This document shows positions 17,136 to 56,532 of a stretch of 64,000 nucleotides of DNA, piece after piece. Each line of letters starts with the position of its first letter. The stretch's first letter is position 1. The notes below the pieces were generated by a model. It was not told the origin of the DNA. It saw nothing but the letters and a program-made list of their open reading frames with translations, and did not search any database. The position numbers and the translations under genes are program-made. Origin of the DNA: Escherichia phage MIZ6; sequence record OR192075.1; one strand, written 5' to 3'.

Positions 17136-17163
17136 ATTATAGAGAATCTCCCTTGTATGTCAA
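17136..17163 (-). promoter_or_regulatory. sigma70-like promoter (TTGACA-16-TATAAT) followed by GGGAGtCTCCC hairpin plus U-run
   Basis: Sits directly after the gp39 stop codon. Confidence 0.4.
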
Positions 17164-33205: not shown

Positions 33206-33234
33206 ATTATAGGGGAATCGACCTAGTTTGTCAA
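33206..33234 (-). promoter_or_regulatory. sigma70-like promoter (TTGACA-17-TATAAT) upstream of polymerase gene, flanked by ATAGGGG / CCCCTAT inverted repeat
   Basis: Minus-strand reading of tgtcaa (33229-33234) and attata (33206-33211). Confidence 0.4.
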
Positions 33235-36745: not shown

Positions 36746-36976
36746 TCACGTTCTAAAGTTTGTTGCAACCCCAGCATCAGGGTAATCAAGTTTATCTAAG
36801 TTGGGGACCAGCATAAACTCATGATGACGACAAGACAACATTTTTGTTATGTCTTCATCGCTGTATATGCTGTTTTTCATATCCCCCATACTAACTACAT
36901 ATTCTTCACCGGAATATAGATTGATTAAGGTATACAATTCTAACTCCGGCTGCGTTACTCTGTCAAATGTTAACAT
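36746..36976 (-). CDS. Hypothetical protein (76 aa)
   Basis: Track ORF, overlaps end of gene 46. Confidence 0.35.
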   Translation of the reverse strand: MLTFDRVTQPELELYTLINLYSGEEYVVSMGDMKNSIYSDEDITKMLSCRHHEFMLVPNLDKLDYPDAGVATNFRT

Positions 36977-38645
36977 TCATTTCAGTGAATCGCCCACGTT
37001 TAACCATCTTGAGATGACGGCTAAAATCATCAGGGTTATGGTCACGATGGCTGATAATATACACGTTATCATCTAACTTGTCAATGATGGAATCAAGTGC
37101 TTTTACGCCTTGAACGTCCGTAGCCCCATCATAAATTTCGTCGAGTACCAACAAAGAAATATTAGTACCAGATACCTTACCAGCAACATCACGCCATGTA
37201 AAGAGCATCGCAAGATCAATACGTGCTTTTTCGCCTTGACTGAATGATGTATACGAAAACGATTCACGCCCCCGTGATTTGATTGTTTCGTTAAACTCTT
37301 CATCTAGCGTAAAGATATAATCCGCTTCCATGATATCAAGATAATATGCAATCCGATCATTGAAATATGGAATATATTTCTTGACGATAGACGCCTTAAC
37401 ACCGGAATCCTTCAACATTTCTGTTACAAATCCACGGTGATATTTTTCAAGAACTAGCTTTGATTTTTCATTAGTAATCTCTACCAGTTCGTGTTCCAGT
37501 TTAGCAAGTTCTTCGGAATTGTCAACCCTTTCTTTTTGTAATTCCTGAATTGCTTTCTGGATCTGCTTAGCACGACCTACAGATGCCGTTAAATTCGCTC
37601 TCTGTGACTCTATAGCGCGTTTAATTTCCAAGACCTTAGTTTGTGCTGTCTGGAAAGAATTGGCCTTCTCTGCGTACTCTACGCGTTTCTCGTCAATCAG
37701 AGACAGTTTATGTTCTGCTTGTGCTTTTTGTTCTCGTACAGCTTGATCATTACCCTGAATGATCGGTTGTGTGCACGTAGGACAGATCCCGCCTTTCTCA
37801 TGCATATGAATAACACGGTCAAAGTTCTGGATCTGTGCACCAATCTGTGCGATAGCCGTATTAATTTTAGCCAATGCCGCGCTAGGATCTTCCGGCATAA
37901 CAACAGCCAATAGCTCATCGGTCAAGCGCGTTTCTTCGGCTTTAAATGCTTTAGCAGATTCTACCTCTTTATCATACATATTCTGTAAACGCTGGAGATT
38001 CTCGGCACTCGCCTTGCTAGCGTCTTCTATGTACTTTTTATGAGTGTTGATTTGTTGCTGAACGTGATTAGCTTTCATTTCCTGCATTTGGATATTCTGG
38101 GTAATCTCGCGCACATACGCTTTATTCAGTTTATCCATTTCGCCTAGTGTAGCAATATCAAGCAAATCCTCGACCAGTTTACGGCGACCCGCTGCCGGAA
38201 GACTCATAAACGGAACATAACCAGCAGTGCCTAAAACAACGATCTGTTTAAAGCTGGCTAGGTTCATGCCTATGATACCTTCAAAATATTCCTGAAAGTC
38301 TTTGGTGCTTGCGCTCTCGTCGATCTTTTGACCGTCTCGATGCACTTCGAATACTTCCGGCTTTTGTCCACGTTTAATATAAAATTCTTTCCCGTCCAGT
38401 TCAAACCAGACTTCGACTAACAGTTTCTTTTTGTTGACGCTGTTAATCAATTGGCCTTTCTTGATACTACGAAACGGTTTACCGAACAACACAAAGCAAA
38501 GCGCCTCAATCATGGTCGATTTACCAGCACCGTTAACACCAGTGATTAGTGTCTTTTTGAATCCGTCTAGCTGAATCTCTACAGGTTCAGCACCCACGCT
38601 CATTATATTTTGATAGCGCAAGGTTTTAAAATTTAACTTTGCCAT
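36963..38645 (-). CDS. 46: Recombination endonuclease subunit (Rad50/SbcC-like ATPase)
   Basis: 560 aa from ATG, same as T4 gp46; strong similarity (KTLITG.NG.GKSTM.EA, KYIPYFN, IMEADY.FTLDEEFNETIKSRGRE); track TTG start replaced. Confidence 0.85.
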   Translation of the reverse strand: MAKLNFKTLRYQNIMSVGAEPVEIQLDGFKKTLITGVNGAGKSTMIEALCFVLFGKPFRSIKKGQLINSVNKKKLLVEVWFELDGKEFYIKRGQKPEVFEVHRDGQKIDESASTKDFQEYFEGIIGMNLASFKQIVVLGTAGYVPFMSLPAAGRRKLVEDLLDIATLGEMDKLNKAYVREITQNIQMQEMKANHVQQQINTHKKYIEDASKASAENLQRLQNMYDKEVESAKAFKAEETRLTDELLAVVMPEDPSAALAKINTAIAQIGAQIQNFDRVIHMHEKGGICPTCTQPIIQGNDQAVREQKAQAEHKLSLIDEKRVEYAEKANSFQTAQTKVLEIKRAIESQRANLTASVGRAKQIQKAIQELQKERVDNSEELAKLEHELVEITNEKSKLVLEKYHRGFVTEMLKDSGVKASIVKKYIPYFNDRIAYYLDIMEADYIFTLDEEFNETIKSRGRESFSYTSFSQGEKARIDLAMLFTWRDVAGKVSGTNISLLVLDEIYDGATDVQGVKALDSIIDKLDDNVYIISHRDHNPDDFSRHLKMVKRGRFTEMNVNI

Positions 38646-38889
38646 TAATCCACTCCGCAATCACACATTCCATAATATTAAATGCTAACACATCTTCATC
38701 AATGTTGTAAACACTTGCCGCCTTCACTTTAACTAATGTGTCTCTGCGATCTGGCAACATGATCACATAATCCAGTGTCGCAGGATCATATGTCATAAAG
38801 GGATCAACATAAATCCCTTTATTCAATGCCAGATATTCGCGAAGACCTTCTATAACCCTGTGTCTAAGGTAGGTCATCGATAGAATCAT
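38626..38889 (-). CDS. Hypothetical protein (87 aa)
   Basis: Track ORF in segment between genes 47 and 46. Confidence 0.4.
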   Translation of the reverse strand: MILSMTYLRHRVIEGLREYLALNKGIYVDPFMTYDPATLDYVIMLPDRRDTLVKVKAASVYNIDEDVLAFNIMECVIAEWINGKVKF

Positions 38890-39482
38890 TTTAGTTTATG
38901 TTCCTCTAAAAATTCTTCAATTTCACCTTGCAGGTCTTCCGCTTGCTGTTCCAGAATATCGCGAAATTCACCTACAGTCAAGCGGTAATCACATTTCACC
39001 AGTCGATGCGGGAGAATATACCCTTTATACATTGTCTCTGACGCTTCCAGGAATACCCCACTATGCATGACAGAGATCCAACCTGTTAACGTCAATGGAG
39101 TATTCGGAAAATAATACTTGCTGGATTGTTTCCACTGTACGAAAGCACCATATACAATAGGATTATATTCACCAACCACACTCTTAATAATGGATTCTAC
39201 TTTGTCTTTTACAAAGTCGCCAATGTCCATAGTTATCATCAACTCTTTTGGATGAATAATTTTAAGGTAACGACGATAGCCATCATCATAATACAGCTTA
39301 ACTACTGGTTCACCCCACATAGACGAAATATTCGCTTTCAGATATCCATAAATCGGATTCTTATCATATGATTGTTTTAGCGTGTAGGTATGCAACAGCG
39401 TAATAAAATGTCGCATTACCAGTTTATCTGGATCAGCCGCGACCATAGTCGTATTCATAATATGTTCCTCGTTCAATTTCAT
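38886..39482 (-). CDS. Hypothetical protein (198 aa)
   Basis: Track ORF in segment between genes 47 and 46. Confidence 0.45.
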   Translation of the reverse strand: MKLNEEHIMNTTMVAADPDKLVMRHFITLLHTYTLKQSYDKNPIYGYLKANISSMWGEPVVKLYYDDGYRRYLKIIHPKELMITMDIGDFVKDKVESIIKSVVGEYNPIVYGAFVQWKQSSKYYFPNTPLTLTGWISVMHSGVFLEASETMYKGYILPHRLVKCDYRLTVGEFRDILEQQAEDLQGEIEEFLEEHKLK

Positions 39483-39750
39483 ATTGTTTCAGGTCTTCTA
39501 AAAGTTCATCCACTGCTTGTTTCAGCACATGACGCAGCGTAAAGTAATAGCTTTCATCAAATTCTATTTCCGCGCGAGGAATAGAGCGAAACTTACACTT
39601 AACGGTAGTATCAGTGAGTCGCTTTTCGACCATCATCCGAACTTCTTCATGCTCTTTGGAATACCATACATCAACGGAGATCCCCTTACGTCGAGCAAAC
39701 ATAGGCAATGCCGCATTAAATTCCATGACCTTTTGTGCAAGTGTTTTCAT
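39433..39750 (-). CDS. Hypothetical protein (105 aa)
   Basis: Track ORF; start may be further downstream. Confidence 0.4.
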   Translation of the reverse strand: MKTLAQKVMEFNAALPMFARRKGISVDVWYSKEHEEVRMMVEKRLTDTTVKCKFRSIPRAEIEFDESYYFTLRHVLKQAVDELLEDLKQYEIERGTYYEYDYGRG

Positions 39751-39998
39751 CGTACAGACCCCATAGATCCACGCGCAATAACATTCTGAGTAATATCAGC
39801 AACCTTACGGGATACGATGTTTGTTAGCCCCTCTTTGGTGATATGTTCACGATCAAATGGGATTTCGTCATGAGTCCATAAACCATAGTTAGACCGAAAT
39901 GATAGCATATACTGACCATCTCGCACAACCTCAAATACATGGATCTTAGTGAATTTCGATAAACCTTCGTTGATTTCTTTCAGTGCATTAGTAATCAT
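39747..39998 (-). CDS. Hypothetical protein (83 aa)
   Basis: Track TTG start replaced by ATG with SD GGAGG. Confidence 0.4.
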   Translation of the reverse strand: MITNALKEINEGLSKFTKIHVFEVVRDGQYMLSFRSNYGLWTHDEIPFDREHITKEGLTNIVSRKVADITQNVIARGSMGSVR

Positions 39999-40023
39999 AA
40001 CAACCTCCAATCAATTTTTAGAG

Positions 40024-40052
40024 AGTATAACGGGGATTTCTCCCCGCGTCAA
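40024..40052 (-). promoter_or_regulatory. sigma70-like promoter (TTGACG-17-TATACT) with CGGGGA..TCCCCG palindrome in spacer
   Basis: Directly after gene 47 stop; drives the 47-46 intervening ORFs. Confidence 0.35.
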
Positions 40053-41078
40053 CTAACTTTTTGCGCTATTTACTTCGGCTAAAAGTTCATCAGAAATACG
40101 CTTGACCGCCGCAAGTTCTTCCGGTTCTAGGTTTTGTTCTTCCAGATATTCATAGACCATCTGAATAGTGCTTTTAACTTCAATAACACCTGTTTCCTGT
40201 GATGCGCTACTCTCCAGCTTATGGACCACTTTTAGCTTGTGTACAACGGCCTCTAACGCGCTTTCTAACTTACTTAACCCATTATCAGCAACCGTTGCGA
40301 TAAGACGCACACTAAGCCCCTTAAAGCGTTCTACATCGATTTTATCATCTGACGGGTAAGTGATACGCACATGATAAGTTTTATCATTCTGGATAAACTC
40401 TTTTTTGTGTGTATCGGTATCGAATACCCAAAAACCACGCGGATCGTTTTCGTCACCAGCCGTTAGTGTGTATGGTGTACCAATATACGTTACGTTACCG
40501 CCATCACTGATAGTATGAAAGTGACCAGAAAACACTTCACGGTATTTCTTGAGGAAGTCCGCGCTATAACCTTCTGATTTTAGCCCTTTATAGAAATAGT
40601 AACCGGACAATTCCCAATGGCCTACACAATATTCGCTGAATGAGTTTTGAATAAACTCTAAAATCTCTGATTTATTGTCATCACAAAACCACGGGAACAG
40701 ATCAAATGATACACCATCAAAGGTGACTGTTTCCGGCTTATCGATAACTTTAATACAATCATACTGGCTTAACACTTCACGCGGTGCGTTAGGCTGGATC
40801 TTGTTTCGTTTAAACATATCATGGTTCCCGACCGTGATATAACAAGTAATACCAGCCTCTTCCAGTAACGGGATGACCTTAGTGCGGTTAAATTTCATGG
40901 TTTCATGGGTAATTGCTTTTCGGCAATCAAACCAATCCCCTGTTTGAATCCATGTCTTAATATTATGCTCTTTGGAGTATTCAACCGCCTTCTTGATGGT
41001 ATCAAGAATATACTCATGCACCCACGGATCATCGCCACCGATACCAGTATGCAGATCACCTAAAAGCAAAATTTTCAT
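40053..41078 (-). CDS. 47: Recombination endonuclease subunit (Mre11/SbcD-like nuclease)
   Basis: 341 aa; calcineurin-like phosphoesterase motifs (LLLGDLH, GNHD, GHFH); matches T4 gp47 size. Confidence 0.85.
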   Translation of the reverse strand: MKILLLGDLHTGIGGDDPWVHEYILDTIKKAVEYSKEHNIKTWIQTGDWFDCRKAITHETMKFNRTKVIPLLEEAGITCYITVGNHDMFKRNKIQPNAPREVLSQYDCIKVIDKPETVTFDGVSFDLFPWFCDDNKSEILEFIQNSFSEYCVGHWELSGYYFYKGLKSEGYSADFLKKYREVFSGHFHTISDGGNVTYIGTPYTLTAGDENDPRGFWVFDTDTHKKEFIQNDKTYHVRITYPSDDKIDVERFKGLSVRLIATVADNGLSKLESALEAVVHKLKVVHKLESSASQETGVIEVKSTIQMVYEYLEEQNLEPEELAAVKRISDELLAEVNSAKS

Positions 41079-41120
41079 AGTCTCTTCCTCTCTTCGTTTT
41101 CGATGCTCTCACTATATCAC

Positions 41121-41146
41121 AGAAAAATAAAAAGGGAAACCCCTTT
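41121..41146 (-). terminator. Intrinsic terminator
   Basis: Hairpin aaagggaaaccccttt with U-run on minus-strand RNA. Confidence 0.4.
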
Positions 41147-41168
41147 CAGAGTCTCCCTTATAAAGCCA

Positions 41169-51118: not shown

Positions 51119-51146
51119 AGTGGGAGTATTATAGCATACTCCCTTC
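51119..51146 (-). promoter_or_regulatory. sigma70-like promoter (TTGACA-16-TATAAT) inside GGGAGTA-N8-TACTCCC palindrome
   Basis: Palindrome 51113-51134 overlaps -10. Confidence 0.4.
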
Positions 51147-51151
51147 GCATG

Positions 51152-52330
51152 TCAAGCACTAACTTTTTTCTTTATTGCTTTCACCTTCTGGCGAATTGCT
51201 CGAATCTCTTCGATCTCTTTTTCAGTATCTTTAACAATTTCTTTGCGATTCTGAATATCTTTATCGAGATTATCATCAAGTTTAGGCAGCATGTCAATCA
51301 AGAACTTTTTAAGGTCTTTCAGGTTGCGAATAACAGTACCTTCACCCATTACCGCCACGCCTACACCATCCGGCAGATCACCAAACAGCTTAACCAGTTC
51401 AGACAGATGATCATGATCTTCTAGTGCTTCTTCTGATTCAGATGGCAGTTCAACAAAGTTATAACGTTCATCATTGCTGATCAGGTGATACCAGCAAAGC
51501 CCAAAAGATTTAGGAGTATATTCTACACCACCAACTTCAACTGCGTCAACACTTCCGAAAGAATCTACTTTAGTTACCTTAAATCCATGTTCCAGCGTTT
51601 TAATAATTTCAATAACATGACTGGATACGGTTTCAGTATTAAACCAATGAGGCAAATTATGTGGATTTGGCTTGTATCGTTCGCCTACTTTAAATCTCTG
51701 ACCACGCTCTTGCATACGGACATATTCAACTCGCGTGATTTCCGCGAAGTATTCAAATTCGCTACCGTCAAACAAGCAATTCCATTGATCACAAAAACGA
51801 TCCGCCTTGACGGTTTCACCTTTCGCGGTGATCATGGTAGCTGATCCGTGCAATTCTTCTTCAACCAAAAAGCCATATTCGACAAAATCAACAAGTTTCA
51901 TGGCTTCTTTGTGCTCTGGGTCATGCTCTCCCCAGAATCGCTTAAATTCTTGCAAACCTTCTGGTGTAAACGAATAACATTTACCTTTTTCAAAGTAAGT
52001 CGGCATTGCATCCTCTTTCTTGTTCATCGCTTCGTATGCCTCTTTTGAGATGCGTTTAAAGTATTTACGCTCATCGTGCATAATCATAGTAGCCCAATAA
52101 TAAACGATATCCTCAGCGGAATAAACTACATCTCCAGCTTCAATAGTAATAACATGACCGTTGTCATCTTTTTCTAATACTTTAAAGCCCTTTTCGACGA
52201 TTTCAGCAACCCGAATATGACCACGGCGCGAAGCATCGGTCAGAATAATTGAATAGCGAGAAAAGTCTAGAAACTCATCTTTACCACCTTCACGGAATGC
52301 ATAGTAATGACCTTCAAAGAATTTAGCCAT
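51152..52330 (-). CDS. Family-A paralog with about four tandem domain copies
   Basis: 392 aa; repeated ...F.V.....G.....IE.G.V.Y......YF..I blocks incl. ERKYFKRI; helical C-terminus. Confidence 0.5.
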   Translation of the reverse strand: MAKFFEGHYYAFREGGKDEFLDFSRYSIILTDASRRGHIRVAEIVEKGFKVLEKDDNGHVITIEAGDVVYSAEDIVYYWATMIMHDERKYFKRISKEAYEAMNKKEDAMPTYFEKGKCYSFTPEGLQEFKRFWGEHDPEHKEAMKLVDFVEYGFLVEEELHGSATMITAKGETVKADRFCDQWNCLFDGSEFEYFAEITRVEYVRMQERGQRFKVGERYKPNPHNLPHWFNTETVSSHVIEIIKTLEHGFKVTKVDSFGSVDAVEVGGVEYTPKSFGLCWYHLISNDERYNFVELPSESEEALEDHDHLSELVKLFGDLPDGVGVAVMGEGTVIRNLKDLKKFLIDMLPKLDDNLDKDIQNRKEIVKDTEKEIEEIRAIRQKVKAIKKKVSA

Positions 52331-53272: not shown

Positions 53273-53301
53273 ATTTTACTACTCCCATTTCTTATTGTCA
53301 A
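53273..53301 (-). promoter_or_regulatory. sigma70-like promoter (TTGACA-17-TAAAAT) inside GGGAGTATTTTACTACTCCC palindrome
   Basis: Minus-strand reading of tgtcaa (53296-53301) and atttta (53273-53278). Confidence 0.4.
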
Positions 53302-56463: not shown

Positions 56464-56532
56464 AATATAATCCTCACATCGTTCATTTGATGCGGTCATT
56501 ATATGATAACCGCATTTTCATGTCAACAGTTT

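Follow-up and report, generated by a model that had tools for sequence, protein, structure and literature searches.

In the stretch of 64,000 nucleotides (nt) of Escherichia phage MIZ6 that we analyzed (sequence record OR192075.1; hereafter the window, to which all coordinates refer), the recombination genes 47 and 46 are separated by four small genes with a promoter of their own, which by its sequence belongs to the promoter-early stem-loop (PeSL) class, in the subclass that has the hairpin between the two promoter boxes. These four open reading frames (ORFs), here designated D, C, B and A in their order from gene 47 to gene 46, are real genes under purifying selection. We consider it likely that together they constitute an early accessory cassette specific to the genus Krischvirus (the RB49/Phi1/JSE group) and lodged in a small hyperplastic slot between the two core genes. 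The structural and evolutionary description of this cassette can be given with high confidence; more tentatively, its products could be non-essential early protein-binding factors that serve in host takeover or counter-defence. The cassette as such was already known: its genes entered GenBank with the RB49 genome and are represented in PHROGs, and a description of the promoter class appeared in 2010. Since both had been catalogued before, the locus carries little weight as a discovery. What the present analysis adds is the recurrence of the 47/46 slot, the weaker constraint on its contents relative to the flanks, the swapping of genes in a near relative and the two-speed evolution of ORF B.

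The frames of D, C, B, A and gene 46 all overlap or abut one another. The start of C shares an ATGA with the stop of D, as does the start of A with the stop of B, and the final 20 nt of A lie within the beginning of gene 46, leaving no intergenic space between these two. The locus had been singled out in an earlier note made from the letters and a list of ORFs, and both the coordinates and the sizes that it gave for the four ORFs agree with that list and with the sequence. Its 198 amino acids (aa) for ORF B correspond to the maximal frame, which opens at 39482. An ATG at 39458 yields a product of 190 aa, and we prefer this shorter version because it has a GAGGAA Shine-Dalgarno sequence, matches the PHROG profile of 190 positions and begins at the start annotated in other genomes. 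ORF D, which is preceded by a GGAGG Shine-Dalgarno sequence 6 nt upstream of its ATG, would extend to 87 aa if read from an upstream TTG, and comes in two allele classes within the genus.

The phyletic pattern of the cassette is sharply bounded. Positions 36900-41100 of the window match Escherichia phages MIZ2 and MIZ3 at 100% identity and another 56 records, every one a Krischvirus (RB49, Phi1, JSE, GEC-3S and others), at 90-99%. A tblastn search of 50,697 phage genomes placed each of the four proteins in the same 58 phage records only, and a gp47 with at least 95% identity is likewise found in exactly 58 records, the next-best gp47 being less than 60% identical. Hence, the cassette is a fixed possession of the genus and, apart from the nearest metagenomic relatives, is confined to it. 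An exhaustive HMMER search for homologs of B across 1.84 billion cluster representatives recovered four clusters, all Krischvirus-like, and word-indexed searches with B, C and D likewise returned Krischvirus-like sequences only. Scans of IMG/VR and of JGI metagenomes found near-identical loci only, and no paralogs of the cassette genes were detected elsewhere in the window.

Pairwise Nei-Gojobori estimates of the ratio of nonsynonymous to synonymous substitution rates (dN/dS) across 11 Krischvirus loci, with dS reaching up to ~1, place the four ORFs at 0.13-0.21 (Table 1). Such values mark them as real genes, although the constraint on them is four to eight times weaker than on the flanks. All four keep the same frames and nearly the same lengths and are intact in each of the 11 genomes examined, and all were detected in the full set of 58 records. 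These observations bear directly on the notion that the region is a non-coding spacer whose ORFs, in part or entirely, are chance occurrences and not genes. The shortness of the ORFs and the want of any database family with a function would be in keeping with it; however, the purifying selection on all four refutes a non-coding origin. Moreover, B and C remain ORFs at 40-50% protein identity in a diverged metagenomic relative (see below), B and D yield confident AlphaFold2 folds and the region has no Rfam match, so that this notion is scarcely credible.

Table 1. Features of the 47/46 locus in the window, with pairwise dN/dS
Feature	Coordinates	Strand	Description	Counterparts in RB49 / Phi1; PHROG	dN/dS
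Gene 47	40053..41078	minus	Mre11/SbcD-like recombination nuclease subunit; upstream flank; stop TAG		0.041
PeSL-type early promoter	40024..40052	minus	-35 TTGACG 40052-40047, 17-nt spacer, -10 TATACT 40029-40024		
Stem-loop in promoter spacer	40030..40047	minus	7 bp, GCGGGGA/UCCCCGU, GAAA loop		
ORF D	39747..39998	minus	83 aa from ATG	RB49ORF038c / Phi1 ORF038; phrog_15867	0.19
ORF C	39433..39750	minus	105 aa	RB49ORF037c / Phi1 ORF037; phrog_15856	0.15
ORF B	38886..39458	minus	190 aa	RB49ORF036c / Phi1 ORF036; phrog_16328	0.21
ORF A	38626..38889	minus	87 aa	RB49ORF035c / Phi1 ORF035; phrog_14972	0.13
Gene 46	36963..38645	minus	Rad50/SbcC-like subunit; downstream flank		0.027

Constraint is distributed very unevenly along ORF B. 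In the N-terminal part (codons 10-95) dN/dS reaches 0.33, while in the C-terminal part (codons 96-190) it falls to 0.04, as low as in the core genes, and the latter domain carries the invariant motif GVFLEASETxYKGYILPHR. This pattern would be expected if the conserved C-terminal domain contacts something invariant and the variable N-terminal domain tracks something changeable. Some genomes (RB49, GEC-3S) show a 4-codon deletion in the variable N-terminal domain.

The GC content of the cassette (0.36-0.43) and its skew match those of the flanks, which argues against a recent foreign origin. A cassette of that kind, whether a "moron" gained by horizontal transfer or DNA carried in by a mobile element (a homing endonuclease, for instance), might be suspected from the presence of a dedicated promoter, from the variability of the slot among genera and from the company of homing endonucleases: an HNH enzyme is encoded directly upstream of gene 47 in RB49 and one lies beside gene 46 in Slopekvirus and Pseudotevenvirus. 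Against this stand, besides the composition, the fixation of the cassette in all 58 members of the genus and the lack of any encoded nuclease or integrase domain in Pfam, NCBIfam and PADLOC searches. Further, there is no terminator closing the cassette, which instead runs straight into gene 46, and the searches returned Krischvirus-like sequences only, with no homologs outside the genus as a possible donor. With regard to the nuclease domains in particular (GIY-YIG, HNH and LAGLIDADG), Pfam and NCBIfam yielded none, and PADLOC gave a single "HEase" match at E = 0.042 and 11.5 bits. We therefore regard recent acquisition as very improbable. The comparison with the morons of lambdoid phages is instructive in this regard. 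The cassette resembles them in consisting of extra genes with their own promoter between conserved genes, but differs in being fixed in its genus and in showing neither a terminator nor a compositional shift. It also differs in its expected early lytic expression, as opposed to expression from the prophage, a contrast drawn in PMC1524935.

A survey of the same position in other genera puts the cassette in context. The earlier note had taken genes 47 and 46 of T4 to be essentially contiguous; in the T4 record, however, they are separated by 46.2 (87 aa) and 46.1 (68 aa, DUF5487). The cassette is thus nothing unusual among T4-like phages, and had seemed odd because T4 was pictured inaccurately. 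At the other extreme, genes 47 and 46 overlap by 4 nt, leaving an empty slot, in Serratia phage X20 (Winklervirus), Klebsiella phage ATCCa (Jiaodavirus) and Shewanella phage Thanatos-1. Between these extremes, a Slopekvirus-like Klebsiella phage and the Pseudotevenvirus EBPL have a single ORF of ~100 aa in the slot, the two being homologous, and a KVP40-like Vibrio phage has one of 75 aa. Acinetobacter phage LemonAid has two, one of which is 203 aa long and annotated as a phosphoesterase (L009 4765-5376); it adjoins the gene for gp47, itself an Mre11-like phosphoesterase, and is without similarity to ORF B.

Homology of A-D to the T4 slot proteins 46.1 and 46.2 was rejected, as BLASTP gave nothing better than E ~0.5, hhalign remained below 2% and no Pfam match was obtained at E <= 1. 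Neither BLASTP nor hhalign gave anything significant against the slot ORFs of Slopekvirus, Pseudotevenvirus, Acinetobacter or Vibrio phages. The sole real relationship among the slot ORFs compared is that of Slopekvirus with Pseudotevenvirus. The 47/46 junction hence emerges from these comparisons as a recurrent insertion slot in the Straboviridae that several lineages have filled independently, and, given that the slot ORFs of different genera are unrelated, the Krischvirus cassette is one such lineage-specific filling. It shares with the T4 pair the slot, the strand, similar sizes, start/stop overlaps with the neighbors and a lack of assigned function, and differs from it in having four genes rather than two and in the want of any sequence or profile similarity.

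The outcome that the earlier note had named as refuting it, the same four ORFs conserved at this position in T4 and relatives as known genes, came about by half: it applies to the close relatives, where all four are annotated "hypothetical protein" in both RB49 and Phi1, but not to T4, whose two slot ORFs lack detectable similarity to them. The synteny comparison that it had called for among T4 and other Straboviridae showed slot contents to vary and the four genes to be Krischvirus-specific, with the T4 slot itself occupied.

The closest view of change within the cassette comes from a 2.7-kb metagenomic contig (L012; Logan contig SRR8048117_7230), on which one of the clusters of B homologs (P0007, ~40% identity) resides. 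The gp47 and gp46 of this contig are respectively 89% and 88% identical to those of the window, and the cassette between them (675-1871) is far more diverged. Its leading element is again a PeSL of this design, although the stem differs (TTGACA-CGGGGGATAGTTCCCCC-TATAAT); it is followed by an ORF of 84 aa that bears no similarity to D, a second 50% identical to C and a third ~40% identical to B. ORF A is missing, and a second promoter/hairpin-like spacer (TTGACA...ATCCCC...GGGGAT) precedes gene 46. As judged from the contig, L012 is a case of accelerated divergence combined with module replacement at PeSL-bounded positions, as the PeSL model predicts.

These differences weigh on the principal competing explanation, namely that A-D are lineage-specific accessory subunits or regulators of the gp46/gp47 nuclease which are co-expressed with it to hold stoichiometry. 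The placement of the four genes between those of the two nuclease subunits is what such an explanation would predict, and the 20-nt overlap of A with the start of gene 46 suggests translational coupling. In addition, the C-terminal domain of B is as constrained as gp46 and gp47, and many other genera also keep some small ORF in the slot. However, three lineages dispense with any slot ORF, their genes 47 and 46 directly overlapping, and the slot ORFs of the different genera are mutually unrelated. In L012, moreover, the 88-89% identity of gp46 and gp47 to their counterparts in the window is accompanied by the loss of A, the replacement of D and only 40-50% identity in B and C. Such divergence is unlike that of obligate partners of a conserved enzyme, and we consider the nuclease-partner explanation unlikely, if less so than recent acquisition.

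The promoter proposed in the earlier note at the head of the cassette was upheld. It matches the consensus at 10 of 12 positions; however, 33 promoter-like matches were found in 7 kb against 19.8 +/- 4.9 expected, and, because such matches are common in this AT-rich DNA, the consensus match alone is weak evidence. The context is more telling. The site begins directly after the TAG stop of gene 47 and occupies the sole intergenic gap of the block, with a Shine-Dalgarno sequence and an ATG downstream (...GCAAAAAGTTAG / TTGACG...TATACT...TTGGAGGTTGTTATG, from the gene 47 stop through the promoter to the start of ORF D). From the -35 through the -10 box it is identical in 12 Krischvirus loci, save for TTGACA in place of TTGACG in Ec_Makalu_001. 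The same site has been independently annotated as a promoter in phage GEC-3S, and its architecture is retained in the diverged L012. The hairpin in the spacer has a minimum free energy of -15.4 kcal/mol (z = -2.4 against shuffled sequences).

PeSLs were described in Phi1 and RB49 by Arbiol et al. in 2010 (PMC2839356) as units in which the upstream gene's stop codon, embedded in an A-rich run, is followed by a strong sigma-70 promoter with a G/C stem-loop and then by a Shine-Dalgarno sequence with the ATG of an ORFan. Each genome has ~50 of them, grouped into five subclasses according to where the hairpin lies. Some Phi1 PeSLs were shown to have promoter and terminator activity, and the authors proposed that PeSLs play a part in modular gene shuffling (PMC2839356); Comeau et al. 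extended this work in 2014 (PMC4122927). The element heading the cassette conforms to this design throughout: the stop of gene 47 lies in an A/T-rich stretch before the -35 box, the sigma-70-like hexamers are 17 nt apart (16-18 nt being typical of the class), a G/C-rich hairpin stands after the -35 box and before the -10 box, and a Shine-Dalgarno sequence and ORFan start follow.

As in Phi1 and RB49, the element is repeated in the genome. Two further elements of the same subclass occur on the minus strand at 47500-47472 and 57201-57173, with the design TTGAC-GGGGATC...GATCCCC-TATACT. Elements of other subclasses, also on the minus strand, are found at 17136-17163, 33206-33234, 51128-51155, 53273-53301 and 56498-56526, those at 17163, 51155, 53301 and 56526 being variants with the hairpin over the -10 box. 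The association of PeSLs with differences in gene content between relatives is likewise seen here, in that L012, with D replaced and A absent, has a PeSL at the head of its cassette. We think it probable that modular shuffling mediated by PeSLs, as proposed for Phi1 and RB49, gave rise to both the cassette and its variants. The present element departs from those described in two respects, for it lies inside a conserved replication and recombination module rather than in a large hyperplastic region, and it heads a block of four genes running into an essential core gene rather than a single ORFan between two PeSLs. It is known from its sequence, whereas the activities demonstrated for Phi1 PeSLs were measured at other sites (PMC2839356).

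The arrangement suggests how the locus could be transcribed. The hairpin is present only on transcripts reading through from gene 47, where it might act as an attenuator or as a 3'-end structure, so that attenuation or termination of the gene 47 transcript would be expected. Early transcription would then start afresh at the promoter and extend across D, C, B and A into gene 46, since the five overlapping or abutting frames leave no room for another promoter. Gene 46 itself would accordingly be transcribed either from this promoter (read 40052-40024) or by read-through from upstream of gene 47. In RB49, Nolan et al. (PMC1524935) noted that a predicted early promoter often lies ahead of "novel ORFs" and that promoters of this kind sometimes serve T4-like genes downstream which have none themselves; the proposed continuation of the cassette transcript into gene 46 would conform to this pattern. 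No T4-type late promoter (TATAAATA) was found in or near the cassette, and no structured RNA of the region matched Rfam at E <= 1.

The proteins themselves offer few leads as to function. The statement of the earlier note that none of the four shows a recognizable motif stands, searches of Pfam, NCBIfam, PADLOC and PDB sequences being empty or far below threshold. In PHROGs each of A-D forms its own "unknown function" family, and the literature searched (the HIDEN-SEQ preprint, an accessory-gene screen preprint and Krischvirus papers) yielded nothing on their function. For B, on which the earlier note had recommended structure prediction, AlphaFold2 returned a confident model from a shallow alignment (predicted local distance difference test [pLDDT] 89.1, predicted template modeling score 0.80), with two halves each composed of a helix, three strands and a helix. 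A single module of this type was predicted for D (pLDDT 85.1, also from a shallow alignment), and the models of both proteins have weak structural neighbors only. In these models, D and both halves of B share a generic α-β3-α two-layer fold with no enzymatic signature, and inspection of the sequences by eye suggests that A and C may adopt it too. The predicted folds of D and of each half of B superpose over ~65-80 residues on the type III secretion class I chaperones and on small α/β proteins of the YbjN family, a likeness of fold only. Paralogy at the level of sequence among A, the halves of B, C and D was rejected (hhalign probabilities <= 1.8%), so that the shared fold of B and D is drawn entirely from the AlphaFold2 models.

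A bolder proposal would take A-D to be structurally related α-β3-α binders that duplicated and diverged in situ and that act jointly in counter-defence or in a modulation of nuclease activity tied to Mre11/Rad50. We deem it improbable, though somewhat less so than a recent moron-like acquisition. Were it true, the module could shield the DNA ends or recombination intermediates made by gp46/gp47 from a host sensor, and the hypervariable N-terminal domain of B would be the interface of an arms race. Its two-speed domain structure makes B a reasonable candidate for inclusion in screens of RB49-type phages for host-interaction or anti-defence factors.

Several observations concern the surroundings of the cassette. 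The HNH/AP2 homing endonuclease gene directly upstream of gene 47 in RB49 is RB49ORF040c (AY343333, 4881-5435). It is absent from the window (41079-41168), which has the Phi1-type arrangement with a-gt.4 next, and the stretch beside the start of gene 47 is thereby another point, adjoining the cassette, at which RB49 and the window vary. In this stretch, on the minus strand, a T-run accompanies a hairpin of 12 bp (41159-41132), which the GEC-3S and Ec_Makalu_001 records list as a terminator; after it come an extended -10-like sequence TGATATAGT (41119-41111) and a strong Shine-Dalgarno sequence. The segment 41111-41159 looks like a second PeSL-like terminator/promoter unit, and gene 47 may accordingly be a one-gene transcription unit between two such elements. 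At the opposite end of the locus, a near-consensus promoter-like site (TTGACA-18-TAGAAT, 36937-36966, minus strand) overlaps the stop codon of gene 46 and falls inside an overlapping downstream ORF of 76 aa (the 45.2-like ORF033). Lastly, the C-terminal G-x-YYEYDYGRG of ORF C (39433-39465) is invariant, even in the 50% identical homolog from L012. The same nucleotides also encode, in another frame, the Shine-Dalgarno sequence and the first residues MNxTM of B, and the conservation may reflect this dual coding rather than a functional tail.

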